Source: a virus (taxonomy: Duplodnaviria > Heunggongvirae > Uroviricota > Caudoviricetes). Taken from it: 12,040 nucleotides of DNA. The notes under the pieces were generated by a model. It did no database searches, had not been told where the DNA came from, and saw only the letters and a program-made list of their open reading frames with translations. The DNA lies in the IMG/VR virus record IMGVR_UViG_2751185968_000006; one strand, given 5' to 3'. Below are positions 189 through 12,040 of the stretch, piece after piece. Every line of letters begins with the position of its first letter. The stretch's first letter is position 1. Both the position numbers and the translations under genes were made by a program.

Positions 189-243
189 GCAAGCACCTTA
201 AAATCACCATCATACACTAAATCAGTAAGTTGGCAGCATTACC
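1..243 (-). mobile_element. IS1-family insertion sequence, partial; continues beyond the left window edge, terminal inverted repeat ends at 243
   Basis: Reverse complement of 232-243 is GGTAATGCTGCC, followed by AACTTACTGATTTAGTGTATGATGGTG, matching the IS1 left terminal repeat as recalled. The insA reading frame follows on the minus strand. Confidence 0.85.
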
Positions 244-2605
244 AATTAACGGAGGGTATCAGTACATTGAAATGAATGGTACCGCAGAATACTCAGTATT
301 AAATGACGGTTATCAAATTGTTCAAATGGGTGGCGCGGCAAACCAGACTACCCTCAATAATGGTGTGCTACAGGTTTATGGCGCAGCGAATGATCCCACG
401 ATTAAAGGCGGGCGCTTAATCGTTGAAAAAGATGGGATTACCGTCCTTGCCGCTATCGAAAAGGGAGGATTACTGGAGGTTAAAGAGGGGGGATTAGCGA
501 TTGCGGTAGATCAGAAAGCAGGCGGTGCTATTAAAGCAAGCACGCGGGTCATGGAGGCATTCGGAATAAACCGTCTCGGTCAGTTCGAAATCAAGAATGG
601 TATTGCTAACAATATGCTGTTGGAAAACGGCGGAAGTTTGCGAGTTGAAGAAAATGACTTCGCTTATAATACTACTGTAGATAGTGGCGGCTTACTGGAG
701 GTTATGGATGGCGGGACTGCAACTGGCGTTGATAAAAAAGCAGGCGGAAAATTAATTGTCTCAACGAATGCGCTGGAAGTGAGTGGTACAAACAGTAAAG
801 GCCAATTTAGTATAAAAGATGGTGTGTCAAAAAATTATGAACTGGATGATGGTTCCGGGCTCATTGTTATGGAGGACACGCAGGCCATTGATACTATCCT
901 TGATGAGCATGCCACTATGCAATCGCTGGGAAAGGATACTGGTACGAAAGTGCAGGCAAATGCGGTATATGATCTCGGTCGATCAGACCAGAATGGAAGT
1001 ATCACGTATTCCTCTAAAGCCATCTCTGAAAATATGGTTATCAACAATGGCCGCGCTAATGTCTGGGCTGGCACAATGGTTAACGTGTCAGTCAGAGGGA
1101 ATGATGGCATTCTTGAGGTCATGAAGCCGCAAATAAATTATGCACCCGCTATGTTGGTGGGTAAGGTAGTGGTTTCTGAGGGCGCTTCTTTTAGAACGCA
1201 TGGTGCCGTGGATACCAGCAAAGCGGACGTTTCGCTCGAAAATAGCGTATGGGCCATCATTGCCGATATCACTACGACGAACCAAAACACCCTCCTCAAC
1301 TTAGCCAACCTTGCGATGTCTGACGCAAATGTGATTATGATGGATGAGCCAGTGACTCGTTCATCAGTGACGGCAAGTGCGGAAAATTTCATTACGTTGA
1401 CCACCAATACCCTGTCGGGAAACGGCAATTTTTATATGCGTACCGATATGGCTAATCATCAGAGCGATCAGCTCAACGTCACCGGTCAGGCAACAGGTGA
1501 TTTCAAAATATTCGTGACGGACACCGGTGCCAGCCCGGCAGCAGGAGATAGCCTTACACTGGTAACAACGGGCGGCGGTGATGCTGCATTTACGTTGGGC
1601 AATGCCGGAGGCGTTGTTGATATCGGTACGTATGAATATACCTTGCTGGATAATGGCAACCATAGCTGGAGTTTGGCAGAGAATCGCGCGCAAATTACCC
1701 CTTCAACCACTGATGTGCTGAATATGGCGGCCGCACAACCGCTGGTATTTGATGCAGAACTGGACACCGTGCGTGAGCGTCTTGGTAGCGTAAAAAGCGT
1801 TAGTTACGATACGGCGATGTGGAGTTCGGCAATTAACACCCGCAACAACGTGACCACTGATGCGGGAGCTGGTTTTGAGCAAACATTGACGGGCCTGACG
1901 CTCGGTATCGATAGCCGTTTCTCCCGTGAAGAAAGCAGTACAATTCGCGGCTTGTTCTTTGGTTACTCTCATTCTGATATTGGTTTTGATCGCGGCGGAA
2001 AAGGTAATATCGATAGCTATACCCTGGGGGCTTATGCCGGTTGGGAGCATCAGAACGGTGCCTATGTTGATGGGGTGGTGAAAGTTGACCGTTTTGCCAA
2101 CACCATCCATGGCAAGATGAGTAATGGGGCAACAGCGTTTGGCGATTACAATAGTAACGGCGCGGGTGCTCATGTTGAGAGCGGGTTCCGTTGGGTTGAC
2201 GGATTGTGGAGTGTTAGACCCTATCTGGCCTTTACCGGCTTTACCACAGATGGTCAGGACTACACGTTATCAAACGGCATGCGCGCTGATGTGGGAAATA
2301 CCCGGATATTACGCGCTGAAGCGGGAACGGCGGTAAGCTATCACATGGACCTGCAAAATGGTACGACGCTGGAACCCTGGCTGAAAGCCGCCGTACGTCA
2401 GGAATACGCCGATTCTAACCATGTGAAAGTTAATGACGATGGCAAATTTAATAATGATGTGGCTGGAACCCCTGGCGTTTATCAGGCTGGGATAAGGTCA
2501 TCGTTTACCCCGACGTTAAGCGGTCATTTGTCAGTCAGCTATGGCAATGGCGCAGGGGTAGAATCGCCGTGGAATACTCAGGCGGGAGTGGTCTGGACGT
2601 TCTGA
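230..2605 (+). CDS. AIDA-I/Ag43-type autotransporter adhesin, 5'-truncated by IS1 (probable pseudogene: no signal peptide, no credible start)
   Basis: 791-aa ORF with repetitive GG-x-L-x-V passenger-type repeats and a C-terminal beta-barrel-like domain ending in aromatic residues (VVWTF). The frame runs into the IS1 terminal repeat; the only start is a TTG at 230 inside IS1, with an in-frame stop at 218-220. Confidence 0.75.
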   Translation: MAALPINGGYQYIEMNGTAEYSVLNDGYQIVQMGGAANQTTLNNGVLQVYGAANDPTIKGGRLIVEKDGITVLAAIEKGGLLEVKEGGLAIAVDQKAGGAIKASTRVMEAFGINRLGQFEIKNGIANNMLLENGGSLRVEENDFAYNTTVDSGGLLEVMDGGTATGVDKKAGGKLIVSTNALEVSGTNSKGQFSIKDGVSKNYELDDGSGLIVMEDTQAIDTILDEHATMQSLGKDTGTKVQANAVYDLGRSDQNGSITYSSKAISENMVINNGRANVWAGTMVNVSVRGNDGILEVMKPQINYAPAMLVGKVVVSEGASFRTHGAVDTSKADVSLENSVWAIIADITTTNQNTLLNLANLAMSDANVIMMDEPVTRSSVTASAENFITLTTNTLSGNGNFYMRTDMANHQSDQLNVTGQATGDFKIFVTDTGASPAAGDSLTLVTTGGGDAAFTLGNAGGVVDIGTYEYTLLDNGNHSWSLAENRAQITPSTTDVLNMAAAQPLVFDAELDTVRERLGSVKSVSYDTAMWSSAINTRNNVTTDAGAGFEQTLTGLTLGIDSRFSREESSTIRGLFFGYSHSDIGFDRGGKGNIDSYTLGAYAGWEHQNGAYVDGVVKVDRFANTIHGKMSNGATAFGDYNSNGAGAHVESGFRWVDGLWSVRPYLAFTGFTTDGQDYTLSNGMRADVGNTRILRAEAGTAVSYHMDLQNGTTLEPWLKAAVRQEYADSNHVKVNDDGKFNNDVAGTPGVYQAGIRSSFTPTLSGHLSVSYGNGAGVESPWNTQAGVVWTF

Positions 2606-2698: not shown

Positions 2699-3109
2699 TG
2701 GGATTCACGAGAGTAGTTTAATTGAGCGTGTAACTTCATGATTTAAAATAATGTATATGATTCAACTTTTAAACCGTATAACCAAACGTATAACTAAAAT
2801 GATTTGCTGAAAAAATGCACAATTCAGGGTCGGATTTTCCCGGATGTTTAATTTATAAAAACGAAGCTGGTGGATGATCTGCGTGGTGATTTCCACCATT
2901 CAGAGCAGGGGCGGTCATCATGCCCATGCCATAACAAAAACCCCATATTCGTGGTTTTTCTGTGTTGTGGCTATTCTGCCGTTGCCGTGCTGGTGGATAT
3001 TTCCGTTATGGGGATCACCATATCGGCATCATGCCCACCAGCCAGCGCAATTTTGCGCTTTGCTTTAAGTTCAGCAAGTTACCGCGCCGGATTACGCCAA
3101 TGGCTGTTT

Positions 3110-3287
3110 CCGAAAGAATCAACGGGTTAGGCCTTAATGGGCTGCGTGGTAATTATCAGCATCCAGAATATGACGGGTTATGTTTCCGACCTCCTCAATT
3201 TGAGGTTCCCGAAAATATCAACGGGTTAGGCTGGTTTCCCCGATGTTCGCCGCTGGCGAATTTCGAAAATATCAACCAGTTACCGCC
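3110..3287 (+). repeat. Three direct copies of a ~22-bp motif (consensus near CGAAAATATCAACGGGTTAGGC) in a non-coding stretch at the element boundary
   Basis: Copies at 3110-3133 (CCGAAAGAATCAACGGGTTAGGCC), 3208-3232 (CCCGAAAATATCAACGGGTTAGGCT) and 3262-3287 (TTCGAAAATATCAACCAGTTACCGCC). A palindrome CCTCAATTTGAGG lies at 3193-3205. Confidence 0.5.
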
Positions 3288-3561
3288 GCAACCGCTCCGG
3301 CTTCTTCCAGTGGTATGTAATTTTCTCCGTTTCCCGATACAGTGCCACGCGGCGATTGTAGGCCAGCATTTCAAGAACGCGGATCCGTATGTTGCGCATA
3401 TCCACATCATTAAGCTGGATACCATCACGGCGCATCACCTCAGCAACAACACGCGCATAATTTTCGGCTGTCACGCTGTCCGGCTGCGTGGCCTGTTCGT
3501 CAGTCTGCTGGCTGATTCCACCAGCACGGCGGATTAATCCCAGTATTTCGGCTTCTGTCAT
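3280..3561 (-). CDS. Hypothetical protein (93 aa), last gene of the satellite-like element
   Basis: ORF with ATG at 3561 preceded by an AGGTG Shine-Dalgarno 4 nt upstream. No recognisable family. Confidence 0.5.
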   Translation of the reverse strand: MTEAEILGLIRRAGGISQQTDEQATQPDSVTAENYARVVAEVMRRDGIQLNDVDMRNIRIRVLEMLAYNRRVALYRETEKITYHWKKPERLRR

Positions 3562-3595
3562 TGTGCACCTATCGTTCTGATTGTCTGGTGTCGTC

Positions 3596-3780
3596 GGGTC
3601 CTTCCTGGAATTATGGACCCGTTACGGGGCGGCGACCTCGCGCGTTTTCACTATTTATGAAAATTTTTCGGGATCCATGTCCGGTTTCTCTACAAGTTAA
3701 CCATATGAAAAATATAAAAACATGCTTTCCATGAACCGGACATGCGCAAAAAACAGACACTAAAACCGGACATCGAACCA
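3596..3780 (+). other. Lambda-type cos site, copy A (plus orientation): cosQ-like flank, cosN, and cosB-like region with three ACCGGACAT repeats
   Basis: GTTACG at 3621-3626 then GGGCGGCGACCT at 3627-3638 (the 12-nt lambda cohesive-end sequence), then CGCGCGTTTTCACTATTTATGAAAATTTT resembling the lambda left end as recalled. Repeats: CATGTCCGG 3676-3684 (inverted), ACCGGACAT 3735-3743 and 3765-3773. Confidence 0.6.
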
Positions 3781-3841
3781 GTTAACCGAAAGTGTGCACA
3801 AATCACATGCATTGCTGCGAGTGATTAACAAGTTATCGGCT

Positions 3842-4276
3842 TTACTGTTCTGTATCGGCTGATTGCTCCATGCTGGCACGGCGAACGCTTACGGCATGAC
3901 GCCACCCAGCCAGAAAGCCAGCCATTTTATTTCGTGCCTTGCTCACATCTTCCGGTGAATAGCCGTAAATCTGCAAACCTTCATCAAATCGATGTTCTGT
4001 TTCTTCACTGGAGTACTCGTCACGCTCAGATGAAAGCAGCCTGGCAAACATAATTTTTTCCAGCGCACTGGTTTCTACGTGATATCTGATGGCCTCAAGA
4101 CGGCTTTTACCTGAAGACCAAAGCAATGTATGCCCGATGTGATAACCGCCAGACTTTCCGCGATCCGCATTAAGATACGGCATCCCCTGTTTGGTCCATG
4201 CGCGAATAGTGGTTCTGTTAACCTTGAAATGTTCAGCTATTTCCTGCTGACTTACAAAACAAGCTTTATCAATCAT
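3842..4276 (-). CDS. Terminase small subunit-like protein (lambda Nu1-type N-terminal HTH), 144 aa; candidate packaging-redirecting (Rpp-like) protein
   Basis: N-terminus QQEIAEHFKVNRTTIRAWTKQGMPY resembles lambda Nu1 KKQLADIFGASIRTIQNWQEQGMPV (from memory). It is shorter than Nu1, sits about 90 bp downstream of cos copy B on the same strand, and no large terminase gene is present. Confidence 0.7.
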   Translation of the reverse strand: MIDKACFVSQQEIAEHFKVNRTTIRAWTKQGMPYLNADRGKSGGYHIGHTLLWSSGKSRLEAIRYHVETSALEKIMFARLLSSERDEYSSEETEHRFDEGLQIYGYSPEDVSKARNKMAGFLAGWRHAVSVRRASMEQSADTEQ

Positions 4277-4343
4277 AATGTTACCTTAACTGCATGGTTA
4301 AATATTAATCAAGTGGTGGTGGTGTCACCTTCACGGAAAAACG

Positions 4344-4407
4344 TCATAAATAGCGAAAACCCGCGAGGTCGCCGCCCCGTAACGGGCCATAATTCCAGGA
4401 AGGACCC
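4344..4407 (-). other. Lambda-type cos site, copy B (minus orientation), immediately upstream of the TerS-like gene; inverted relative to copy A
   Basis: Minus-strand reading is GGGTCCTTCCTGGAATTATGGCCCGTTACG-GGGCGGCGACCT-CGCGGGTTTTCGCTATTTATGA; cosN lies at 4366-4377. About 64 bp are near-identical to copy A (3596-3660) in inverted orientation. Confidence 0.65.
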
Positions 4408-4409
4408 GC

Positions 4410-4431
4410 AAAAAAGCCGGATTTCTCCGGC
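4410..4431 (-). terminator. Rho-independent terminator-like hairpin after the 137-aa gene; copy 1 of a thrice-repeated hairpin
   Basis: Plus strand AAAAAA-GCCGGA-TTTC-TCCGGC (stem 4416-4421 / 4426-4431). On the minus strand the hairpin is followed by T6. Confidence 0.45.
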
Positions 4432-4437
4432 CTTGTC

Positions 4438-4851
4438 TCAGATGGTTTTCAGTATGCGATCGATGTCGCCGTCATCGCCTGGGTTTCTGCCATCGTATGC
4501 CATGCCAGCTGATACGGTTTGTGGGCTGTGCATGTCCATAAAGTTTTCAAAGGCTGCGGTAAGCTCTGGTGCAACCTTCGGGCGTTCCTGCTCTATGGTC
4601 ATGTTCAGGATGTTTTTAGCCGTATCAACATCGATACAAGGCACGTTTGCCATTGCACGCAACAGCGGCTGATAGTCTTTATGCTCATGAAGCGCCATAA
4701 TCGCATCAGCGCGCGGCTTGTCCTGCTCTTCCAGTTTGTTGAGTTGATATACGGCCTCGTAGGTTGATAAACCTCTGTCAGCCATTGCCCGCGCTTCGGC
4801 TTTAAATTTACTCGCCAGCGGTAGCGCCATGATGCTTTCATTCGTTGCCAT
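4438..4851 (-). CDS. Hypothetical protein (137 aa) between decoration-like gene and cos; possible head or packaging accessory protein
   Basis: ORF with ATG at 4851 and a GGGGGA Shine-Dalgarno sequence. Position matches a capsid/packaging module; no family recognised. Confidence 0.5.
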   Translation of the reverse strand: MATNESIMALPLASKFKAEARAMADRGLSTYEAVYQLNKLEEQDKPRADAIMALHEHKDYQPLLRAMANVPCIDVDTAKNILNMTIEQERPKVAPELTAAFENFMDMHSPQTVSAGMAYDGRNPGDDGDIDRILKTI

Positions 4852-4863
4852 CGTTCCCCCTGC

Positions 4864-5167
4864 TTATCGGGCCAGCGGCTGAACGGATACGCCAGAACCC
4901 GCAAAGGCGGCGCATTTTTTCGCATCGGTGTCGACGCTCTCAGGCCAGTTAACGGCGGCAATATTGAATATCCCCGTCTTGTAACACTGTGCTGATTTCT
5001 GCTTTGACGTGTCCACGAGGTACGAAGTCAGATAAACAGCCTTGCCAGATTCCTGACCATCCCACGGCTTAAACTCGCCATTGTCCACCAGCATCAGCGG
5101 CAAAATGTACCAGTGTCGTTGATACCTGCTGACTGCCTGCAAATAACTCAATATATGGAGTGTCCAT
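4864..5167 (-). CDS. Head decoration protein, lambda gpD-like; possibly frameshifted
   Basis: The C-terminal frame (supplied ORF 4864-5151) reads PLMLVD...WDGQ...YKTGIF...WPESVD...KKCAAFAGSG, paralleling lambda gpD PLMLD...WDG...YKSGTF...WPEA...KKRTAFAG (from memory). The only ATG with a good RBS (GGGGGA) is at 5167 in another frame, which stops at 5069. Confidence 0.55.
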
Positions 5168-5178
5168 ATAATCCCCCG

Positions 5179-6234
5179 TTAACCAATTTTGACGGTAACA
5201 AATTTGCGAATATCTGCCGGAACCGGCTGCGGTGCGCTGTGTGTCTGCACGTACTCAATCGCCGGATCGCCGTCCTCAATCCAGTTTTTCGGGTAGTACA
5301 TGTTTTGCGTTGCGCCCGTTCTTACCGCTTCCTGATCCATAATCGCACCATAGGCCACCAGCCCTTTATTGTTGGTGTTGCCCAGGACCAGCAAATCAGG
5401 CTCAAGGAAATATTTTTCGGTGCCGTCGCTGTCAGTGTATTTGCCGGAATAGACAATAAGAGCAATATCGCCCAGATAGCCTTTAAAGCTCACCACTTCG
5501 CCCAGGTTTTTACAGGCCATTTCTGCGGCGGATTCTGAACCACGGGAAAGATCGTACAGTTCACGGAATTTTTTAAAGCTGCGTAACGTGCGCCATACCT
5601 CAGCGCCCATAATCATGACGTTGGCGGGGCAACCTGCCTGATCTGCGTATAGTTCGATGTCATAGATTGGATCGTAAATATCTTTATCATGCTCGGACCA
5701 TTTTTTGCCGTCGGACTGCTCTATGATGTTTTTTTCCGGTATCTTCCAGTCGATTTCATAGCGTTCTATGCCTTCGCCCTCAATGATGTTTTTTCCGGTC
5801 GTTACCGCATTCACCGCCAGCCATTCCACGCGTGCCTTAATGGCGTTTATCTGGCGGCGCATGTTGCCAGTAATCAGGCGCATACGGCGATAGGTAGGGT
5901 CGTTAAGCTGTGCCGGATCTTCTCCAGCCATGCGCATGATGGTTTTCGTTGGATCGATTTCGTGCTTTGGCTTCATGTAGCCAGGTTTGATTGTGCTGGT
6001 TTCGTACCCTTTATCGCGCTGAACCTGGCTACCCACCATAGGCGAACAAAACGCCGACATGGTGACTTCTTCAATGTCCAGGGTATCCAGCATGATGTTT
6101 TGCGTGCTGAATGTCGCCACGTTCGGGAAAAACAGCGTGGTAAACAGAGGGCTGAATTTAAAATCCGCAATATCCCCGCGATTCAGGTACATAAAAAGCT
6201 GGTTAGTGTTAAGTGCCGTTGCTTTGCCTGCCAT
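5179..6234 (-). CDS. Major capsid protein, lambda gpE family (351 aa)
   Basis: Collinear similarity to lambda gpE as recalled: FKFSPLFTTLFF vs FKFDPLFLRLFF, PGYMKPKHEIDP vs PGYVKPKHEVNP, DPTYRRMRLITGNMR vs DPAYRRRRIIMQNMR, YKGYLGDIALIVYSG vs YKGMYGDVAIVVYSG, YPKNWIEDGDPA vs YPKNWVTTGDPA. Confidence 0.9.
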   Translation of the reverse strand: MAGKATALNTNQLFMYLNRGDIADFKFSPLFTTLFFPNVATFSTQNIMLDTLDIEEVTMSAFCSPMVGSQVQRDKGYETSTIKPGYMKPKHEIDPTKTIMRMAGEDPAQLNDPTYRRMRLITGNMRRQINAIKARVEWLAVNAVTTGKNIIEGEGIERYEIDWKIPEKNIIEQSDGKKWSEHDKDIYDPIYDIELYADQAGCPANVMIMGAEVWRTLRSFKKFRELYDLSRGSESAAEMACKNLGEVVSFKGYLGDIALIVYSGKYTDSDGTEKYFLEPDLLVLGNTNNKGLVAYGAIMDQEAVRTGATQNMYYPKNWIEDGDPAIEYVQTHSAPQPVPADIRKFVTVKIG

Positions 6235-6440
6235 TATTCACCCCCATAATTTTTATGCATCCCAAGCGCCGCAAGTAAATAAGAGCGTACAAGTGAACCT
6301 ATCGACGGCTCCGGCGTCATCAGCGGATCCAGTCCAGCCGCCACGCCAGCCTCATAGTTTTTTTTGTGGCGCTGCTTGAGCACCTCCACGATTTCGGGGC
6401 TTATGTACACCGAAACACCGCCTTTTTTCTCTTCAGCCAT
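6234..6440 (-). CDS. Hypothetical small protein (about 68 aa), translationally coupled to the major capsid gene
   Basis: Likely start at ATG 6440 (MAEEKKGG...) with AAGAGGAA upstream; the supplied ORF extends to 6473 without an RBS. Its stop overlaps the capsid start as TAATG at 6232-6236. Confidence 0.45.
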   Translation of the reverse strand: MAEEKKGGVSVYISPEIVEVLKQRHKKNYEAGVAAGLDPLMTPEPSIGSLVRSYLLAALGMHKNYGGE

Positions 6441-6493
6441 AGTAAGAAATTCCTCTTCGACTAAAAAAATCATAACTGGATGTTTATCCAGTC

Positions 6494-6524
6494 CTGATTA
6501 TAATCAGAATTGCATTTTATGCAA
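6494..6524 (-). promoter_or_regulatory. Putative sigma70-type promoter for the capsid module, with both hexamers inside palindromes
   Basis: Minus strand: -35 TTGCAT (plus 6519-6524), 16-bp spacer, -10 TATAAT (plus 6497-6502). The -10 lies in the palindrome CTGATTATAATCAG (6494-6507) and the -35 in TTGCATTTTATGCAA (6510-6524). Confidence 0.4.
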
Positions 6525-6604
6525 TAATATTGAGTTATGTTGCAAATTATGAAATGATTATCCCGATCACGAACGCCAGTGCATCCAAAAACCTCATATG
6601 CAAA

Positions 6605-6642
6605 AGCCCGATAAGAACCCTCTGACCTTATCGGGCTTTTTT
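6605..6642 (+). terminator. Terminator-like hairpin with T6 tail on the plus strand
   Basis: Stem AGCCCGATAAG (6605-6615) / CTTATCGGGCT (6627-6637), followed by TTTTTT (6637-6642). No obvious plus-strand gene lies upstream. Confidence 0.4.
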
Positions 6643-6648
6643 GGGCGC

Positions 6649-6670
6649 AAAAAAGCCGGATTGCTCCGGC
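6649..6670 (-). terminator. Rho-independent terminator-like hairpin after the 74-aa gene; copy 2 of the repeated hairpin
   Basis: Plus strand AAAAAA-GCCGGA-TTGC-TCCGGC (stem 6655-6660 / 6665-6670); T6 follows on the minus strand. Confidence 0.45.
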
Positions 6671-6690
6671 TATGTGTGCTGTGTGCTGGA

Positions 6691-6915
6691 TCAGTCTCTG
6701 ATCTCTTTCAGAAATTCTATCAATGCATCTATCTGTTCAGGATTTACCGCCAGCATTTCACCGGATAGAGCACATCTCACAAAACCATGCTGATCCTTTT
6801 CAATCAGTGCGCCCGTCTCCAGGAATGCGCGGTAATCATTGATGCTCATCGTCTCCATGTTGTCAGCATGGTATTTATCACGCTGTTTTAATATCTCATC
6901 AAATTTCATCGGCAT
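6691..6915 (-). CDS. Hypothetical protein (74 aa), stand-alone cassette
   Basis: ATG at 6915 with an AGAGGAAA Shine-Dalgarno sequence. Bracketed by terminator hairpins at 7012-7033 (upstream) and 6649-6670 (downstream). Confidence 0.5.
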   Translation of the reverse strand: MPMKFDEILKQRDKYHADNMETMSINDYRAFLETGALIEKDQHGFVRCALSGEMLAVNPEQIDALIEFLKEIRD

Positions 6916-7011
6916 TGTTTTTTTCCTCTGTTGTGTCTGTTTGTTTCAGATAGTAACTATGCCTGACCGTGACGAAAACCCGGTAATGCGCCATACCGTT
7001 TCAACTGGTGC

Positions 7012-7033
7012 AAAAAAGCCGGATTTCTCCGGC
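7012..7033 (-). terminator. Rho-independent terminator-like hairpin after the PerC-like gene; copy 3 of the repeated hairpin
   Basis: Plus strand AAAAAA-GCCGGA-TTTC-TCCGGC (stem 7018-7023 / 7028-7033); T6 follows on the minus strand. Confidence 0.45.
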
Positions 7034-7040
7034 TGTTTGA

Positions 7041-7313
7041 TTAGCTGTCCTGGTAATTGCGCCATATTTCATCACCAGCACCATCTATACCCATTTCGGC
7101 ATAAGTGCGATCGACTGCCTTTTTCAGGTCTCCGAAATTATCCGGCGGCTCCGGTGCCCTCTGTGCCTTCCTTGAACATTCCAGCCGTCGCATCGTGATG
7201 TGATGCCGTTCCTTGTCTGTCTCCACCAGCTGCATGACTTCACCCCATCGCGCCGCCGCCCTCCGGTAAAAGCCTTTCGCCTCCAGTTCCTCCGCTATGC
7301 GGTCATGTACCAT
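7041..7313 (-). CDS. PerC-family-like transcriptional regulator (about 90 aa)
   Basis: Likely start at ATG 7313 with a strong GAGGGGGTG RBS. The protein MVHDRIAEELEAKGFYRRAAARWGEVMQLVETDKERHHITMRRLEC fits the PerC/Pch pattern (LE..G.WRRAA.RW...TD.ER) as recalled. Confidence 0.45.
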   Translation of the reverse strand: MVHDRIAEELEAKGFYRRAAARWGEVMQLVETDKERHHITMRRLECSRKAQRAPEPPDNFGDLKKAVDRTYAEMGIDGAGDEIWRNYQDS

Positions 7314-7323
7314 CGTCACCCCC

Positions 7324-7734
7324 TCAGAACGAAATATCATCACCGTAAGGGTCATCGCCTCCCGCTGGTGGCTGATTACCCTGTGTGCCTGTGGTTTTGC
7401 GTCTGTTCCCGCCTGGACGTGCCGCGCGGGCACTGATTACGCTGTCTGCGATAACCTGCCAGCCCTGCCGCGTTTCTCCGTTCTGTCCGGTCCACTGGCT
7501 TACCTGCATCGTGCCGGATACGCTGGCAACATCGCCTTTTTGATGTTTAGCCAGGAAGTCGGCCTGTTTGCCAAATGCGATGACCGATAACCATAACGTC
7601 GCCTGTCCGTCCTGTGCCTGGCTGCATGGCAAAGATACCGCCATACGCGCCAGCGTCATCGGTGTGCCCTTGCTGGTCTGTTTTACCTGCGGGTCGTCCA
7701 CCAGCCGCCCGTAAGCGGCTATCTGTGCCGTCAT
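7324..7734 (-). CDS. Single-stranded DNA-binding protein (SSB)-like, 136 aa
   Basis: N-terminus IAAYGRLVDDPQVK resembles the SSB OB-fold start (VILVGNLGQDPEVR), and the C-terminal acidic tip PYGDDISF resembles DDDIPF. The start overlaps the upstream stop as ATGA. Confidence 0.65.
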   Translation of the reverse strand: MTAQIAAYGRLVDDPQVKQTSKGTPMTLARMAVSLPCSQAQDGQATLWLSVIAFGKQADFLAKHQKGDVASVSGTMQVSQWTGQNGETRQGWQVIADSVISARAARPGGNRRKTTGTQGNQPPAGGDDPYGDDISF

Positions 7735-7982
7735 AATTCCACCTCTCCGGTTTTAACGTTGATGGTTGTTACCTGTTCCGCTTCGGCAATCTCCCGTTCT
7801 GTCAGCGTGGCAAAGTTTGCCGCCGCCGTGGTCATGAATGCGCTTATCAGGTCGGGATGTTCCTTCGCGTATCCTTCCCGCGTGTGGCGGTCTATCGTTC
7901 TGATTGCCACCTTTAAGGTGTGCTCAGTCATGTCTAACGCTTTATATTTTGGCTCTGTTCTGTCTCTGCGTTTTTGGGTCAT
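7731..7982 (-). CDS. Hypothetical protein (83 aa from ATG 7982; the supplied ORF extends to a GTG at 8012)
   Basis: ORF translationally coupled to the SSB-like gene. The upstream extension overlaps the iteron array, so the ATG at 7982 is the more likely start. Confidence 0.45.
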   Translation of the reverse strand: MTQKRRDRTEPKYKALDMTEHTLKVAIRTIDRHTREGYAKEHPDLISAFMTTAAANFATLTEREIAEAEQVTTINVKTGEVEL

Positions 7983-7993
7983 TTCTCGCAACC

Positions 7994-8181
7994 TCTCACT
8001 TTTTCGCCTCACTTTTTCAAGCGTCTCACTTCGTCGCAGTTGGGATTTTCGGTTTTTCTATGTGTGTGTTTTATAAGTATTTTTTTACCCCTCACTTTTG
8101 AGGATGTATACAGGTCGAAAAGTGAGGGAGAGCGGGCTAATTTTGGCCCTCTTTCTATCCCCCTCGCTTTTGCTCCTCACT
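7994..8181. repeat. Iteron array and AT-rich region: putative satellite origin of replication, immediately downstream of the replication gene
   Basis: Seven copies of CCTCACTTTT-like motifs: CTCACT at 7995-8000, 8008-8013, 8025-8030, 8091-8096 and 8176-8181, an inverted copy at 8118-8127, and a variant CTCGCT at 8163-8168. An AT-rich stretch lies at 8041-8087; copies 4 and 5 form 12-bp inverted arms 16 bp apart. Confidence 0.5.
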
Positions 8182-8182
8182 T

Positions 8183-8530
8183 TTATAGCGGCGCTACATC
8201 ATCCCCATCGATACTAATAACCCCATCTTTTTCCAGCTTGTACAGCCAGCGCCGGAAGTTTTTCATTTCATACCCCAGCTTTTTCATGTCATCACGTAAC
8301 AGCGGGATCGTGCACTTGTCGCCGTTCTGTGTGCGTGAACGGATGCACCCCCATAGCGCGGTATGGTTTTCCGTCTTGTTCCCTGCCTCCTCGATGCGCT
8401 CCAGTTCAACAGGAGGGCGCGGATCATCCACCACCACCAGCGACGTGATTAATTCACCGTCAGCGTCGGTAAAAAGCTCCACCACGCGTAAGTCATATGC
8501 GGCTTCTTTGAGTTCCTCCGCGTCCTTCAT
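8183..8530 (-). CDS. Replication protein, C-terminal fragment (second piece of a frameshifted primase/helicase-type gene)
   Basis: This frame stays open upstream of the annotated ATG to about 8638 and there encodes DESARGSSAFRASLDAEY, the expected continuation after the HHSGKD motif of RecA-like replication ATPases. Confidence 0.6.
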   Translation of the reverse strand: MKDAEELKEAAYDLRVVELFTDADGELITSLVVVDDPRPPVELERIEEAGNKTENHTALWGCIRSRTQNGDKCTIPLLRDDMKKLGYEMKNFRRWLYKLEKDGVISIDGDDVAPL

Positions 8531-9582
8531 TTTGGTGCATGAGATAACCAGCGCTTTGCTTCCTGCGTCCTCCCTGCGTATCCGGTATTCAGCATCCAGC
8601 GAAGCACGAAATGCACTGGAACCGCGCGCGCTTTCGTCTCATCCTTGCCGGAATGGTGAACCACCAGCACCGTGGCCCCTGTGCGTCGTTTCAGTTCGTC
8701 ACAACCACGGATAAACGCCCCCATATCACGGGAATCATTTTCATCATTCCCACCAAAGCAACGCGCCAGCGTATCCAGAATAATCATGCGTACAGGTTTA
8801 CCCGTTTCCCGCTCCACCTGACGGGCAGCGATAACCATTTCATCAACATCAAGCGGGGCAGCCGGAAAGATGGGGCGGTTTACCAGATACAGATTTTTCA
8901 CCTGCTCATCGTGCACAACCTCCCAGGCTTTTACACGACGCGGAACGCCGATACCGCCTTCACCAACCACATAGAGAACCGCACCATGTGCAACCCTGCG
9001 GCCTCCCCACTGGCGACCAGTGGCAACATGGCACGCCCACGATCCGGCAAGGAATGATTTATAGGACCCGCTAGCCCCGTATATGCTGCATAGCGATACC
9101 GCCGGAATAATCCCCTTAACCACGTAATCCAGTTGCGTGTCGTATCCGGTAGATCCAACGCTCATCGGTAGCGTGGTTTTTCGCTGGTGGTTTTTTTCTT
9201 CCACCGGCTCTTTCCCGCGCACCCGTTCCAGGTATTCGCGCCAGTTCTCCCGCATATGGCTGTGCATCCCTTCGGGGTAATAATTCGCATCAGTTACACC
9301 CGCCGCCGCCAGCTTGTGCGCAATGGCATTAATATTTGATGGCCTGATGTGGCCTGCCTTGTACAGCCGGACACAATAGCGCCCCTCGTCGATGATTCTC
9401 AGGTCTGCCAGTTCATCCAGTTGATCATCAGCCAGCACAACGGGAGGCACATTATCGCCAGCCAGTCGCCCGTCCTGTTCCTGCCACTGTTTTGCATGTG
9501 CCCAGGCATCACTACCCGCAAAAATAATGACTTCGGTCATCTTGTCGTAAGGCTGTTTTTTTAAGTTCGGTGCGCTTTTCAT
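8527..9582 (-). CDS. Primase/helicase-type replication protein (RepA-like P-loop ATPase), N-terminal fragment ending prematurely after a frameshift
   Basis: Walker A GASGSYKS, Walker B MIILDTLARCF, then VLVVHHSGKDE typical of RepA-like helicases. The frame then reads TKARAVPVHF... to a stop at 8527, just downstream of a (CG)4 tract at 8623-8631. Confidence 0.75.
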   Translation of the reverse strand: MKSAPNLKKQPYDKMTEVIIFAGSDAWAHAKQWQEQDGRLAGDNVPPVVLADDQLDELADLRIIDEGRYCVRLYKAGHIRPSNINAIAHKLAAAGVTDANYYPEGMHSHMRENWREYLERVRGKEPVEEKNHQRKTTLPMSVGSTGYDTQLDYVVKGIIPAVSLCSIYGASGSYKSFLAGSWACHVATGRQWGGRRVAHGAVLYVVGEGGIGVPRRVKAWEVVHDEQVKNLYLVNRPIFPAAPLDVDEMVIAARQVERETGKPVRMIILDTLARCFGGNDENDSRDMGAFIRGCDELKRRTGATVLVVHHSGKDETKARAVPVHFVLRWMLNTGYAGRTQEAKRWLSHAPK

Positions 9583-9878
9583 TTCTTGCCCCTGAATCCG
9601 TTAATCATGGTTTTCAGCTTCTGGATGTTTGCCCGTGCCCTGGCGTTGCTGGTGGGCACGTTATGCGGCGCGGTCTGTACCAGAGAAAAATCACGCCGGA
9701 ACTGATAAACAGGCATCACGCAATCATATTCGTAACCTTCACGGCGGTAGGTTACACGCCGTTCTTCCACGCCCTTAATCATTACCGTGCCGCCGTACTG
9801 GTCGCGGTAAATATCACCGCGCGTAAATTTAGGGTGAGTGTTGCCACTGGCAGTTAAGCCAGAATATTTAAGTTTCAT
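9579..9878 (-). CDS. Hypothetical protein (99 aa), coupled to the replication gene
   Basis: ORF in the tiled minus-strand operon; its stop overlaps the replication gene start (ATGA). Overlapping plus-strand ORFs have junk-like composition. Confidence 0.45.
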   Translation of the reverse strand: MKLKYSGLTASGNTHPKFTRGDIYRDQYGGTVMIKGVEERRVTYRREGYEYDCVMPVYQFRRDFSLVQTAPHNVPTSNARARANIQKLKTMINGFRGKK

Positions 9879-9883
9879 TATTT

Positions 9884-10117
9884 TTATTCTCCGGTGTGCT
9901 GTTCTTTATATCTGTCGTGCAATAGATCTATTTCTTGCAGTTCCATTATTACAGGCTCAAGAAGCGTTATTAATGCCGTGGCAATTCTTGATTTTTGTTT
10001 GTCGCGTTCATTGTCGCCAAGTGTTTCAAGCCATATGCGCAATATTTCCAGCATGTTTTCACTGTGAGAAAGTGCAAGAAATGCGCGGTCTATTGTTTCG
10101 TGGTAAATATCACGCAT
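9884..10117 (-). CDS. Hypothetical protein (77 aa)
   Basis: ORF in the tiled minus-strand operon with protein-like, charged composition; no family recognised. Confidence 0.45.
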   Translation of the reverse strand: MRDIYHETIDRAFLALSHSENMLEILRIWLETLGDNERDKQKSRIATALITLLEPVIMELQEIDLLHDRYKEQHTGE

Positions 10118-10343
10118 GGCTTACATCCTCAGGAAATTTTCTTCTGTAACGCGCCTCTGCCACATATTCCGCATAATCGGCGGCGATATTCAGTACATCA
10201 AGCCCCGTTGATTTATATTCTCTCGTGGAAAGTAAGAAAAAAGCCGCTCTAATAAGTTCTGGCATTGACGAAAGCGCATCAGCCGCATCATCAGGAACGC
10301 CGGGAAATTCCTGTTTCAGGGAATTAAAACGATCATCACGCAT
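10110..10343 (-). CDS. Hypothetical protein (77 aa from ATG 10343; the supplied ORF extends to 10391)
   Basis: ATG at 10343 is preceded by a G7 Shine-Dalgarno run and overlaps the upstream stop codon (ATGCGTGA). Confidence 0.45.
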   Translation of the reverse strand: MRDDRFNSLKQEFPGVPDDAADALSSMPELIRAAFFLLSTREYKSTGLDVLNIAADYAEYVAEARYRRKFPEDVSHA

Positions 10344-10557
10344 AACCCCCCCCATTTTCACAATCAGCAACAAGAATATTTTTAGCGTCATTCAGCGACC
10401 GCGTTGCGATGTATCGGATACATTCCAGGGCGAACTGTGTCCGGTCTTTCTGTTCTTCTCCCTGCGCAAGCTCTGCAGTGCATTCAATATCAATAAGCGC
10501 GTGCATCAGCGTAGTGAGTGCGGCGGCTGCTGCGTTCGGTGTGGTTTTATTGTGCAT
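10336..10557 (-). CDS. Hypothetical protein (73 aa from ATG 10557; the supplied ORF extends to 10599)
   Basis: ATG at 10557 is preceded by AGGGGGAAA. No family recognised. Confidence 0.45.
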   Translation of the reverse strand: MHNKTTPNAAAAALTTLMHALIDIECTAELAQGEEQKDRTQFALECIRYIATRSLNDAKNILVADCENGGGYA

Positions 10558-10747
10558 AGGTTTCCCCCTGACGAATACGGGCGGCGAATACAGCAACACA
10601 ACCGGACGGGCAACGGCTACGCGCTTCGCGTTCCGTCCAGGCGGTTACGTGGATGATTTGAGATTCTCCGGCACTCAGGGCCAGAAAACGCCACACAAAG
10701 GCCGTTTGTGTGTGTACAAGGTGTGGTATATGATTTACGGCAACCAT
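10547..10747 (-). CDS. Hypothetical small protein (66 aa), likely first gene of the leftward operon
   Basis: ATG at 10747 is preceded by TAGGAG with a 5-nt spacer. A structured leader hairpin (10779-10809) lies upstream. Confidence 0.35.
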   Translation of the reverse strand: MVAVNHIPHLVHTQTAFVWRFLALSAGESQIIHVTAWTEREARSRCPSGCVAVFAARIRQGETYAQ

Positions 10748-10836
10748 AACGGCTCCTAGTTTACGTTGTTGGTTAGAAGCCCTGCGAGTGGTAATGACAC
10801 TTGCGGGGCTTTGCTTTTTTAAGTGCTCTTGTGTTA

Positions 10837-10883
10837 AGGTGGCCACCTAACAATGGAAAGGCTAATTCAATAGGTGACCACTT
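10837..10883. promoter_or_regulatory. Divergent control region with two related operator-like sites and a consensus -35 hexamer
   Basis: Perfect 12-bp palindrome AGGTGGCCACCT (10837-10848) and a related half-palindromic site AGGTGACCACTT (10872-10883), about 35 bp apart. TTGACA reads on the minus strand at 10888-10883. Confidence 0.35.
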
Positions 10884-10941
10884 GTCAATAATCAAACGCG
10901 ATAAAAGCCCTAAAGGGGACGGGCAATCCCCACAATTCAGA

Positions 10942-11073
10942 ATGCGAATTTCTCCAGAGCTAAAAGAGCAATTCGACAAAGAAGCACAGAGCGACGGCAT
11001 AAGCCTAGCCAACTGGCTTAAAGAGTTGGGGCGCACTGAACTAAAGCGGCGCGGCATAGAACCCAAAGGATAA
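10942..11073 (+). CDS. Small ribbon-helix-helix (Arc/CopG-like) DNA-binding protein, 43 aa; candidate repressor
   Basis: MRISPELKEQFDKEAQSDGISLANWLKELGRTELKRRG fits the RHH pattern of a short N-terminal beta-strand followed by two helices. It is divergent from the main operon and next to the operator-like palindromes; its RBS is weak. Confidence 0.45.
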   Translation: MRISPELKEQFDKEAQSDGISLANWLKELGRTELKRRGIEPKG

Positions 11074-11130
11074 AAACTATCAGCGCCGTGGTGTGAGGTA
11101 TTACGGCGCATTGCTATGCAGGACAACACA

Positions 11131-11304
11131 ATGACCGATAAAGAATTGACCAAAACATTATCACCGGCACGGAAAAGACGGCGCAGAAAGATAGAGCATG
11201 AATCAGAAAGATTCGCACCATGTGCTTTTGCCCTTGAGCAATTCCTTAAAGAGTATAGGGAAAAGCGCTCATTGCAGGTATGGCAACGAACTGAACCAGA
11301 CTGA
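11131..11304 (+). CDS. Hypothetical small basic protein (57 aa), second gene of the rightward pair
   Basis: ATG at 11131 is preceded by AGGA with a 7-nt spacer. It has an arginine/lysine-rich N-terminus (ARKRRRRK) and is followed by a plus-strand terminator. Confidence 0.35.
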   Translation: MTDKELTKTLSPARKRRRRKIEHESERFAPCAFALEQFLKEYREKRSLQVWQRTEPD

Positions 11305-11398
11305 TTGCATTGCCCACCAGCCTGATAGCGGCTATCATCCCCGTGCTTATGTTTGGGATCATATACACATAAGGCGCAGCGGGTTAATTGTTCAGAAA

Positions 11399-11659: not shown

Positions 11660-11764
11660 CGTGATTTACCTTGTGAATCCGGTGTATTCCGGTGACAAAT
11701 ACGGTAAATCATCGGATATGGGTAAAAACAGTTCCCACCGTTTTTAAACGGTATACACCGTTTT

Positions 11765-12040
11765 GGTAATGACTCCAACTTACTGATAGTGTTTTATGTT
11801 CAGATAATGCCCGATGACCTTGTCATGCAGCTCCACCGATTTTGAGAACGACAGTGACTTCCGTCCCAGCCTTGCCAGATGTTGTCTCAGATTCAGATTA
11901 TGTCGCTCAATGCGCTGAGTGTAACGCTTGCTGATAACGTGCAGCTTTCCCTTCAGGCGTGATTCATACAGCGGCCAGCCATCCGTCATCCATACCACGA
12001 CCTCAAAGGCCGACAGCAGGCTCAGAAGACGCTCCAGTGT
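11765..12040 (-). mobile_element. IS1-family insertion sequence, partial; right terminal repeat at 11765, continues beyond the right window edge
   Basis: GGTAATGACTCCAACTTACTGATAGTGTTTTATGTTCAGATAATGCCCGATGAC from 11765 matches the IS1 right terminal repeat as recalled. The insB frame follows on the minus strand. Confidence 0.9.
11780..12040 (-). CDS. insB: IS1 InsB transposase, C-terminal part (gene runs off the window edge)
   Basis: Minus-strand translation [86 protein letters not shown] matches the InsB C-terminus as recalled; it is in frame to the window edge. Confidence 0.85.

Follow-up and report, generated by a model that had tools for sequence, protein, structure and literature searches.

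The window, a 12,040-bp stretch of DNA, contains yejO and then a decaying phage-inducible chromosomal island (PICI) of the EcCICFT073 type, a family of E. coli phage satellites, at tRNA-Pro (proL) (Table 1). The island was assigned by synteny with EcCICFT073 and its relatives and by the spacing of cosN and rpp, and it has the features that define this type: integration next to a tyrosine integrase at a fixed site, an alpA-like regulator, a replication gene of its own, and rpp with a lambda-type cos site ~102 bp upstream. Like EcCICFT073, it carries a backbone of PerC, capsid E-like, decoration D-like and 137-aa genes, rpp with its upstream cos, a second cos site and a 93-aa gene, but it lies at proL rather than phoQ and is decaying: its rep and decoration genes are frameshifted, its int-proximal end carries an IS1, and its att core has been shortened. 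The int gene lies outside the window, past an IS1. The first base of cosN (4377) is 102 bp from the start of the rpp homologue (4276), the same distance as in the published PICI-C cos-rpp layout (PMC9026076); the encoded protein has residues R21, T22, R25, K29 and K41 as in Rpp proteins and a PHROG terminase small subunit N-terminal match. EcCICFT073 has itself been described with two cos sites (PMC6092414, PMC6739421). Chi sites are strongly over-represented in the island.

A first-pass annotation had placed a repeat region at the distal end of the element. Aligning the window to the empty K-12 site, to homologous island ends and to the tRNA-proximal junction of a related island located the att core copy at 2707-2714, with island-specific DNA from 2715 on, so the repeat region does sit at the island's distal end. 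Junctions from BEC1 and Nissle, also aligned, retain a longer att core than the window, and tRNA-Pro was detected in one relative (L001). The tandem CGTATAAC pair that had been reported at 2745-2775 exists, although its actual position is 2775-2794. These are the only two copies in the window, whereas the 25 kb of intact relative L001 contain 6 copies, where chance would give 0.47 (none of 100 shuffles reaches 6), every one of them confined to the two att arms (2 distal and 4 beside int, the latter 2 inverted and 2 direct). Presence on both arms and confinement to att are what arm-type sites display, and the CGTATAAC repeats are likely to be integrase arm sites. Farther into the island, the palindrome TATGGGGATCACCATA is kept in about 40 related loci, EcCICFT073 among them, and the shared block that contains it is also found alone beside other att modules (hits H40, H46 and H50-53).

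Table 1 Features of the distal part of the island and of the genes and cos sites that follow.
Feature	Position	Strand	Remarks
att core remnant CACGAGAG	2707..2714	.	Copy of tRNA-Pro proL 3' end
Two CGTATAAC repeats	2775..2794	+	Candidate arm-type integrase binding sites, distal att arm; copies at 2775-2782 and 2787-2794
Shared block	2866..3042	.	Three Chi sites, A5/T5-flanked hairpin, 16-bp palindrome
Chi sites in shared block	2866-2873, 2989-2996, 3035-3042	+, +, -	Chi scan
Mechanical ORF, 86 aa	2870-3130	+	No family match
A5/T5-flanked hairpin in shared block	about 2936-2960	.	
Mechanical ORF, 191 aa	2962-3537	+	No family match
GATC-centred 16-bp palindrome TATGGGGATCACCATA	3007-3022	.	In shared block
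Unit 0, degenerate	3043..3085	+	Hairpin GCGCAATTTTGCGC, then TTCAGCAAGTTACCGC; relatives carry TATCAGCAAGTTACCGC
Unit 1	3086..3132	+	Weak hairpin GCCAATGGC inside outer CGGA/TCCG stem, then AATCAACGGGTTA (3117-3129), an IHF consensus match
Unit 2	3180..3231	+	Hairpin CCTCAATTTGAGG (3193-3205), then IHF consensus TATCAACGGGTTA (3216-3228)
Mechanical ORF, 77 aa	3195-3428	-	No family match
Unit 3	3232..3285	+	Hairpin TTCGCCGCTGGCGAA (3246-3260), then IHF consensus TATCAACCAGTTA (3270-3282)
93-aa gene, last of late operon	3280..3561	-	PHROG 1561; array always just downstream
cosN of second cos site (cos2)	3627..3638	+	Exact GGGCGGCGACCT; resembles phi80 left end; outside array
rpp homologue and cos	3842..4377	-	rpp 3842-4276, 144 aa; cosN 4366-4377; outside array

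Anatomy of the repeat array

The three 22-bp direct repeats noted earlier at 3110-3287 are real and lie at 3106-3132, 3205-3231 and 3259-3285, the second and third being 89% and 63% identical to the first copy and following at spacings of 99 and 54 nt. Both reported palindromes were also recovered, AGCGCAATTTTGCGCT at 3044-3059 and CCTCAATTTGAGG in unit 2. The array unit is a non-coding segment of ~48 nt that consists of a variable two-tier hairpin or palindrome, an A-rich linker (TTCCGAAAA-like) and a core that fits the consensus of IHF, a DNA-bending protein of the host (WATCAR-N4-TTA), and the window array comprises three good copies and one degenerate copy. The original observation is upheld in part, with the CGTATAAC position corrected and a fourth, degenerate unit added. 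GC content over the array is 0.47-0.53. Perfect matches to the IHF consensus WATCAANNNNTTR (WATCAR-N4-TTR, as given in PMC9452768 and PMC10380432) number three in the 12,040 bp on both strands, and all three are inside the repeats, on one strand and within 166 bp; 0.64 were expected by chance, and a count of three was reached in 4 of 200 shuffles.

The annotation had also found no credible ORF from 2700 to 3280. Mechanical ORFs do exist there (Table 1), and the non-coding stretch stops at 3279 because the 93-aa gene has its stop codon inside the third repeat, the TTA of unit 3 being that minus-strand gene's stop (TAA); comparison nonetheless bears out the non-coding character of the region. 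RefSeq annotation is absent over this stretch in most genomes, and across the 300 nt adjoining the 93-aa gene just 3 of 43 variants have an open plus-strand frame and none has an open minus-strand frame. Since frames are not kept open across variants, the region is non-coding. Coding repeats had been considered on the grounds that the window spacings of 99 and 54 are divisible by 3 and that one frame reads SERINGLG / PENINGLG / FENINQLP; they were ruled out by the spacings of relatives, which fall in all three classes, by the rarity of open frames among the variants and by the absence of a Pfam match.

Homologues of the 93-aa protein (70-100% identity) adjoin the motif in about 55 loci, and in EcCIEDL933 the gene comes after terL. 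A genome-collection scan with the protein found at least one locus, in Shigella. A sequence search against solved structures returned no relative, and the protein is unrelated to a small minus-strand ORF near phi80 cos.

Conservation across related islands

We compared 43 distinct sequence variants of the region 3' of the 93-aa gene, which contain 69 unique units. The variants have 0-6 (usually 1-6) WATCAR-N4-TTR sites within about 630 nt of the stop of the 93-aa gene, the chance level being about 0.01 per 400 nt per strand; the sites keep a single orientation throughout, and in most variants the stop codon and the last site overlap. The logo of the 69 units has invariant ATCA and TTA and a varied N4 (CGGG, CCAG, CAAG, ACAG, TCAG and others), the pattern expected of IHF sites. 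About 50 of the 69 units have a perfect hairpin of 4-11 bp that ends 9-10 nt upstream of the core, with at least eight unrelated stem sequences represented, whereas shuffled sequences give mostly 3 bp. The units fold into a two-tier hairpin with a mean z of -1.8. RNAalifold returned no consensus structure on a MAFFT alignment of the units, because loop lengths differ between them, and the structure was then tested explicitly by pairing and covariation. Pairing covaries, with 74.6% of cells paired versus 61% in shuffles (0 of 500 reach 74.6%) and 20-51% in slid controls, and a covariation score of 0.40 versus 0.19 in shuffles (0 of 500), statistics that err on the generous side, given that the units are paralogous and themselves supplied the structure under test.

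The array is found with very different modules. EcCICFT073, the prototype Gram-negative PICI, carries three units and EcCIEDL933, the capsid-forming prototype, six, and the EcCICFT073 array (at phoQ) is near-identical to that of the window despite a different integrase, a different att site and unrelated att-proximal sequence. Across islands, the array was seen at proL, phoQ/roxA and clpS-side att sites with different integrases; with different replication genes, namely a P4-type primase in Nissle and a RepA helicase in the window, between which the region is 100% identical; and with the 144-aa Rpp (window, CFT073), a 180-aa TerS (Nissle, BEC1) or a cf-PICI terL. This variety of integrase, replication and packaging genes argues that the array is not an att arm, a cosB or an origin, and makes a host factor the most economical binder. 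We conclude that the array is a backbone feature of EcCICFT073-type and capsid-forming PICIs, independent of the integrase, replication and packaging modules.

Absence of the repeats from related islands had been named as evidence that would count against their being a boundary feature; most related islands have them. Exceptions are 042, which has GTCAC repeats instead of the array, and one Shigella copy with a single unit, and the relatives without the array indicate that it is not essential for maintenance. The unit architecture also occurs in other elements, downstream of perC-like and Rha genes. The perC-linked arrays (L058, L090) point the opposite way with respect to the gene beside them. 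No one transcription-based role covers all cases. Searches of phages by blastn with 2700-3300 and with two contexts that are not E. coli-like (L064, L073) gave no match. The array appears to be previously undescribed: the published work on EcCICFT073 and EcCIEDL933 that we examined covers genes, cos and rpp and leaves the array unmentioned.

Alternative interpretations

The first-pass reading took the 22-bp repeats to be arm-type sites for the island integrase or excisionase, which we now consider very improbable. The repeats do sit distally in the element, with 390-570 bp between them and the att core, and in the excised circle their region is joined to the int side. However, they occupy one side only, the array-to-core distance varies between about 300 and 900 bp, and there is no covariation of the array with the integrase/att module, since it occurs at no fewer than three att sites (the clpS-side site included) and is conserved at phoQ in EcCICFT073 as described above. 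A different motif, CGTATAAC, is the one confined to both arms. The arm-repeat idea accordingly fits CGTATAAC but not the 22-bp repeats, whose occurrence goes with the 3' end of the 93-aa late gene and not with the integrase; of the earlier interpretation, the distal position is retained, and so is the suggestion to test IHF, which fits the sequence. Hardly more credible is a packaging function, with the repeats as cosB-like R elements or as an IHF site (I1) for a terminase/Rpp complex. It is prompted by the lambda-type cos sites nearby in the island and by lambda cosB, which joins repeats to an IHF site (PMC9026076), yet a cosB is expected no more than about 200 bp from cosN, on the side of the terminase gene, and the array (3043-3285) is 1.1 kb from the functional-type cosN upstream of rpp and, relative to cos2, lies on the cosQ side, past a gene. 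Published work maps packaging specificity to the cosB beside cos1, and the array does not covary with the small terminase/Rpp DNA-binding domain, being found with Rpp, with the 180-aa TerS and with a cf-PICI that has its own terminase. CosB/R sites were dropped once both cosN copies had been located and the published cos-rpp layout had been matched.

Palindromes acting as origin iterons, or as decoys for the O-type initiator of a helper phage, are also highly unlikely. Lambda ori iteron 3 has 10-mers in common with two of the hairpin types (CCTCAAATTG, TGGGGGATTG) and the linker TTCCCGAAAA is identical to the left half of the phi80 gp15 iterons, and lambda and phi80 are the helpers of EcCICFT073 (PMC6092414), but we estimate that ~2000 distinct array 10-mers would give roughly 0.3 chance matches per ~80-bp origin, which makes these iteron matches weak. 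The spacing is off by 6 bp from the phi80 iteron, the array has no AT-rich unwinding region next to it, and it does not change with the replication gene of the island, the Nissle and window regions being identical beside different replication types. A collection scan with the hairpin TCCCCCAATGGGGGA, made for helper-initiator decoys, gave scattered single matches in unrelated contigs. An RNA-level function deserves more attention, although we still regard it as unlikely: the hairpins might act in the 3' UTR of the late-operon mRNA as stabilisers or processing sites, or the region might encode small or antisense RNAs. The covarying hairpins, an array that begins at the stop codon of the last late gene and a terminator-like score on the plus strand for the 3044-3059 hairpin with its T-run all point in this direction. 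An RNA element leaves the invariant ATCA...TTA unexplained, however, and folding energy has no strand asymmetry (Wilcoxon p = 0.33), most hairpins are not followed by a U-run on either strand, and the array is flipped relative to the upstream gene in L058 and L090. Rfam gave no match in the array; in the window there was none at gathering scores, and at E up to 5 there were only chance-level matches, all outside the array.

A connection to rha is of another kind. The ATC-AAY-NNN-TTA motif also equals coding for the peptide I-N-x-L, and the units weakly but frame-consistently resemble the rha core, so the conservation pattern could partly descend from a coding ancestor. The unit sits in frame within Pfam-confirmed Rha genes (L071, L083), positions 3039-3058 of the window agree with phi80 rha at homologous codons (19/20 nt, E = 0.02), tblastn pairs FRRAHFCVSEKINKLGIFDK with FRPPQFEVPENINGLGWFPR (10/20 identical, E = 0.04-0.3), and in L064 an array lies directly 3' of a Rha gene. 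The units might thus be decayed and duplicated pieces of the Rha-family core, left by lambdoid-phage recombination and now functionless, a reading that we rate as doubtful. Debris would not explain the repeated keeping of just a ~48-nt segment in 1-6 copies, the strict single orientation or the fixed hairpin distance maintained through unrelated covarying stems, and the unit 3 hairpin, judged by eye, keeps its spacing to the core but not to the 'NFE' codons. The translated array has no Rha domain in Pfam, with no match to Phage_pRha (PF09669) or any other family even at E = 10, and tblastn of the array peptide against phages found no match. Compared with phi80 rha, the array units share short, position-specific DNA similarity to the conserved core, but the array is not a gene, with neither an open frame nor a Pfam match. 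Phi80 rha lacks a perfect IHF consensus at the position homologous to the unit; its annotation reads 'DNA synthesis inhibition in IHF- hosts', and a passage of PMC4936722 that cites Henthorn and Friedman 1995 describes it (Phage_pRha family) as IHF-regulated. An origin from rha and a present function are mutually compatible.

Comparison with known IHF elements

Among known elements, the array invites comparison with RIP/RIB (BIME-1), which is likewise a repeated extragenic element with a short GC-armed palindrome and an IHF consensus; both sit after the 3' ends of operons without a settled function, the array being non-coding and starting at a stop codon. The differences are structural and distributional. 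Whereas BIME-1 places its IHF site between two inverted REPs, the array unit has a single palindrome, located only 5' of the IHF core, with stems of many unrelated sequences (the eight or more noted above) and units arranged head to tail; and the array is confined to satellites and related mobile elements, whereas RIP/RIB is dispersed in the E. coli chromosome. The array is not known to have sequence similarity to the REP consensus.

The cores share their consensus with the lambda attP sites H1, H2 and H' and with I1 of cosB, and like them they belong to a mobile element and lie near att and cos; lambda H2 (GAATCAACTACTTAG) matches unit 1 (GAATCAACGGGTTAG) at 11 of 15 positions. The array differs from the lambda sites in lying farther from the att core than the usual 150 bp or so and not beside cosN, in not being bound to a particular integrase or terminase, and in having up to six same-orientation copies, each with a phased hairpin. 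The A-tract typical of strong IHF sites does not seem to stand at the customary distance in the array, where an A-rich linker occupies -4 to -1 and an A/T-rich hairpin loop about -19 to -15 relative to the core, positions that appear to differ from the A-tract offset of lambda H'.

Proposed function

Our best explanation of the whole, to which we give an even chance, is that the repeats form a satellite-backbone array of phased palindromes and predicted IHF sites with an architectural or insulating role. From the consensus match, we infer that the cores bind IHF, and the architectural or insulating role is a deduction as well. A search for IHF ChIP data from CFT073, EDL933 and Nissle turned up none. 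Host IHF would bind each core and bend the DNA sharply, with the palindromes in fixed phase, and the late operon would thereby end in a compact nucleoprotein boundary formed by the array. The array itself is one-directional and lies directly 3' of the last late gene, before the attachment-site arm; in the excised circle it comes between the late operon and attP with int. It would probably either block or insulate transcription over the end of the element, or help to shape the long attP region. A more specific version, in which the array is a functional, satellite-specific cis element derived from an IHF-responsive rha core and serves as an IHF-dependent switch or roadblock at the junction of the late operon with attP/int, seems to us a rather slim prospect; were it true, satellite transcription, excision or transfer would depend on IHF level and hence on growth phase.

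EcCICFT073 and EcCIEDL933 are working models of Gram-negative satellites, and their genes and cos sites have already been dissected. With the CGTATAAC arm sites told apart from the array, the depiction of the attachment site is corrected, and the array provides a simple sequence marker of the distal end of this satellite family that helps to delimit islands. The rha link and the Chi enrichment offer leads on how satellites cope with host factors (IHF, RecBCD). If IHF binds the array, a nucleoid protein that varies with growth phase would be tied directly to satellite biology, with possible effects on read-through out of the helper-activated late operon, on excision and integration, or on the compaction of DNA.

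A repeated unit with a hairpin and an IHF-consensus core

The three direct repeats proposed by the first-pass annotation are real and well beyond chance, and both palindromes listed with them were also recovered; the stop codon of the adjoining 93-aa gene falls within the third repeat. The repeat cores, AATCAACGGGTTA, TATCAACGGGTTA and TATCAACCAGTTA, are the only perfect matches in the window, with both strands searched, to the integration host factor (IHF) consensus WATCAANNNNTTR (PMC9452768, PMC10380432), which would fit the annotation's hint at IHF. A degenerate fourth unit lies where relatives have TATCAGCAAGTTACCGC.

Features of the window, with coordinates in nucleotides
Feature	Position	Strand	Remark
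Autotransporter gene yejO	230-2605		ORF
yejO terminator	2668-2696
Degenerate fourth unit	3043-3085
Palindrome	3044-3059
Direct repeat	3106-3132
Palindrome	3193-3205
Direct repeat	3205-3231
Direct repeat	3259-3285
cosN	3627-3638	+	Exact lambda sequence
rpp homologue, 144 aa	3842-4276	-	Rpp residues R21, T22, R25, K29 and K41 present
cosN	4366-4377	-	Exact lambda sequence; 102 bp upstream of rpp start
Head-decoration gene	4864-5167		Split over two frames
RepA-type replication gene	8183-9582		Split over two frames
IS1	11760-12040		Just past AlpA-like gene

Among 69 unique units, ATCA and TTA are invariant, the four central positions are free to vary, and conservation extends to CG at -6/-5 and A at -2. 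In about 50 of the 69, a perfect hairpin of 4-11 bp with a 3-4-nt loop lies upstream, its end exactly 9-10 nt from the core. At least eight unrelated stems occur (CCTCA/TGAGG, TTCGCC/GGCGAA, GCGCA/TGCGC, CAGCC/GGCTG, TCCCCC/GGGGGA, CCCA/TGGG, TTCCACA/TGTGGAA and CCAAAGCTCA/TGAGCTTTGG), and shuffled controls gave mostly 3-bp stems. The units fold as a two-tier hairpin (mean z -1.8), with an inner stem and a covarying outer stem of CCG/CGG type (CCAG/CTGG, CCCGA/TCGGG and CCAA/TTGG, for instance). In an explicit structure test of 32 units, which are paralogues and from which the tested structure was itself derived, 74.6% of cells were paired compared with 61% in shuffles, and the covariation score was 0.40 compared with 0.19, neither value being reached in 500 shuffles; slid controls were 20-51% paired. 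Folding energy did not differ between strands (p = 0.33).

The first-pass annotation saw no credible ORF here. Mechanical ORFs do cross the region, but comparison of variant frames shows it to be non-coding: across the 300 nt adjoining the 93-aa gene, any plus frame is open in only 3 of 43 variants, and no minus frame is open in any of the 43. Core spacings (44, 48, 54, 68, 85, 96, 99, 116, 135 and 140, among others) fall into all three classes modulo 3.

Distribution among satellites

When IMG/VR was scanned with the pattern, 48 loci were returned, nearly all on small, satellite-sized contigs; in almost all of them the motif adjoins a gene homologous to the 93-aa gene, at 70-100% identity. 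Across 43 distinct variants, zero to six WATCAR-N4-TTR sites, usually one to six, lie downstream of this gene in a single orientation and within ~630 nt of its stop codon, which the last site overlaps in most variants. EcCIEDL933, the prototype capsid-forming phage-inducible chromosomal island (PICI), has six sites, and there the 93-aa gene comes after terL. In the published accounts we consulted, we found no description of this array, although the satellite family whose conserved end module it forms is well studied. The array is not universal, being absent from Escherichia coli 042; in the island of this strain at tqsA, the 93-aa gene is followed directly by five close GTCAC(N5-6) repeats (L003 3935-3995), possibly another protein-binding array occupying this position.

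The island and its boundary

An ~11-kb island lies to the right of yejO. In intact relatives it ends at tRNA-Pro (proL), with yejM adjoining, and encodes an integrase, a small helix-turn-helix (AlpA-like) regulator, Icd-like genes, a replication gene, SSB, a PerC-like gene, a lambda E-type major capsid gene, a lambda D-type decoration gene, a small terminase-like gene and, last, the 93-aa gene. The same backbone occupies the phoQ site of CFT073 as EcCICFT073, the prototype Gram-negative PICI, in which c1503 is rppA. The two cosN sequences match two cos sites reported for EcCICFT073 (PMC6092414, PMC6739421), and the 102-bp distance from the minus-strand cosN to rpp is the layout described for functional PICI cos (PMC9026076).

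EcCICFT073-type islands also carry genes clearly homologous to those for the lambda major capsid protein E (window 5179-6234; Pfam E = 3e-51) and decoration protein D (window 4864-5151), and encode a 137-aa protein similar to the C-terminal portion of a head maturation protease/scaffold; the capsid-type genes of EcCICFT073 itself lie at L061 669-2071. In contrast, the 2018 description of EcCICFT073 has it lacking capsid morphogenesis genes and packaged in full-sized capsids. The window's island copy is decaying. IS1 lies beyond the AlpA-like gene, so int has been displaced or lost, and the att core (within 2701-2714) is 6-9 nt shorter than in the island copies of BEC1 and Nissle.

Three sequences were compared to map the boundary: the empty K-12 site, the window junction and a relative's tRNA-proximal junction. 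Chromosomal sequence is identical as far as ...TGGGATT. The 3' end of tRNA-Pro, TGGTCGGCACGAGAG, forms the att core, and only CACGAGAG of it (2707-2714) remains in the window. Island DNA begins at 2715, so the repeat region lies at the distal end of the element, as had been proposed; the suggested alignment to an empty site thus places the boundary at 2707-2714.

The annotated tandem CGTATAAC pair exists, at 2775-2782 and 2787-2794 rather than 2745-2775. This motif occurs six times in 25 kb of an intact relative (0.47 expected; six reached in none of 100 shuffles), always inside the two att arms, with two copies in the distal arm and four beside int, of which two are inverted and two direct. 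By this distribution it appears to behave as arm-type integrase sites. The att-arm reading of the first-pass annotation holds for CGTATAAC, confined as it is to both arms, and fails for the 22-bp repeats. The stretch bearing the pair (2715-2862) is found only with the proL-type module, and in E. coli genomes this stretch, the block at 2863-3042 and the array are combined in various ways; 1,368 of 5,426 complete genomes (about a quarter) match some part of the region.

Other elements lie between att and the array. A hairpin, AAAAACCCCATATTCGTGGTTTTT (2936-2960), flanked by A and T runs, resembles a bidirectional terminator, and its stem in EcCIEDL933 (L011 1420-1452) is AAAAACAACATATTCGTTGTTTTT, a compensatory change. 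A GATC-centred 16-bp palindrome, TATGGGGATCACCATA (3007-3022), is operator-like in look and is kept in about 40 related loci with differing att modules, including EcCICFT073 (at most one mismatch to TATGGKGATCMCCATA), with two or three copies in some. Chi (GCTGGTGG) is strongly over-represented in the island, with 14 sites in 9.3 kb (2866-11321; 1.5 per kb), compared with none in the window's 2.7 kb of chromosome and 0.33 in shuffled sequence; it ranks top of 168 8-mers of the same composition, the runner-up having a count of 4. Mean density is 0.88 per kb in 28 related satellite contigs versus 0.20 per kb in phi80. Three sites fall in the repeat region (2866 and 2989, plus strand; 3035, minus strand), and one or two plus-strand sites between att and the array are kept in relatives. 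We searched the literature for reports of Chi in PICIs and found none.

Alternative functions and origins

Several functions can be set aside because the array is shared among islands that differ in the relevant part. As an att arm it would be expected to follow the integration module, yet EcCICFT073 has another site, another integrase and unrelated att-proximal sequence and is near-identical to the window from 3112 on, the first hairpin alone differing; the array is also present at a clpS-side site. A link to the replication gene is rejected by Nissle 1917, 100% identical over 2715-3279, with a P4-type primase versus the RepA-type helicase of the window, and a link to a packaging protein by arrays found with Rpp, a 180-aa TerS or a capsid-forming PICI terL. 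Both cosN sequences lie outside the array, which rules out cosB; published work on PICI cosB finds neither an IHF site nor R repeats (PMC9026076). Two hairpin types (window 3193-3205 and related units) share the 10-mers CCTCAAATTG and TGGGGGATTG with iteron 3 of the lambda origin (L092 479-500), and the linker of the units, TTCCCGAAAA, is identical to the left half of the gp15 iterons at the phi80 origin (L091 36663-36739). Lambda and phi80 are EcCICFT073 helpers (PMC6092414). These iteron matches are weak, with an estimated ~0.3 per origin by chance.

The nearest known kind is the RIP/RIB (BIME-1) chromosomal repeat, which likewise combines palindromic units with an IHF site after operon ends. 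The array units lack the REP pair, have a single palindrome of many sequences, run head-to-tail and are restricted to satellites; with these defining features failing, the array is not a member of that class. Lambda attP and cosB also contain IHF sites; the array differs from these in position and in its independence of recombinase and terminase.

A second, looser pattern scan, for which about ten chance matches are expected, pointed to rha; its AT-rich single matches without hairpins are probably chance. Pfam-confirmed Rha genes (L071 3534-4079, L083 7260-7574) contain the unit in frame, as a hairpin with TTTCCGAAAAAATCAAT.AGTTA, and it encodes ...FRRAHFCVSEKINKLG... there; a three-unit array directly follows another Rha gene (L064 4783-5950), and further units occur after perC-like genes and in an intergenic spacer ahead of a tape-measure-like gene (L073). 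Read in the ATC frame, the second unit of the window gives FRPPQFEVPENINGLG, with 10 of 20 identities to the Rha segment (tblastn, E = 0.04-0.3, small database), and window 3039-3058 matches phi80 rha at 19 of 20 nt at homologous codons (L091 43930-43960; E = 0.02). On either side of the conserved N/H-F pair, rha genes encode the flanking residues (R..A, A..C) by codons complementary to each other, so the hairpin exists within coding sequence also. The rha product is annotated as blocking phage growth in IHF-deficient hosts, and rha is reported to be IHF-regulated (PMC4936722). Neither Pfam nor BLAST detected Rha similarity of the array at the protein level, and phi80 rha has no perfect IHF core at the matching position. 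The link to rha is suggestive, not proven; through it, part of the ATC-AAY-NNN-TTA pattern could derive from I-N-x-L codons. That the array is nothing but rha debris seems unlikely to us, given that hairpin phase is fixed although the stems are unrelated, that orientation is single and that this segment alone is retained, repeatedly.

Proposed role

Because the array is kept across islands with differing DNA-binding proteins, and the positions that never vary in it coincide with the IHF consensus, the host factor IHF would be the most economical binder. IHF bends bound DNA by ~160 degrees or more. A bend of this size on each core would allow three to six sites 48-140 bp apart to fold the island end compactly, with the palindromes at fixed phase.

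Another small AlpA-linked element, beside a LysR-type chromosomal gene, also carries arrays of these units immediately after perC-like genes (L058 12425-12720, L090 about 7300-7650). Relative to the gene upstream of them, these arrays run in the opposite direction from the array in the window, so any role would not be strictly bound to one transcription direction.

In the excised circle, all genes point the same way and the order is late operon, 93-aa gene, array, Chi/palindrome block, arm sites, attP core, arm sites and int, which puts the array where helper-activated late-operon transcription would enter attP and int. The array might alternatively help the long attP region. Judging from its position before attP and int, we favour an architectural or insulating role for the array at the end of these satellites.
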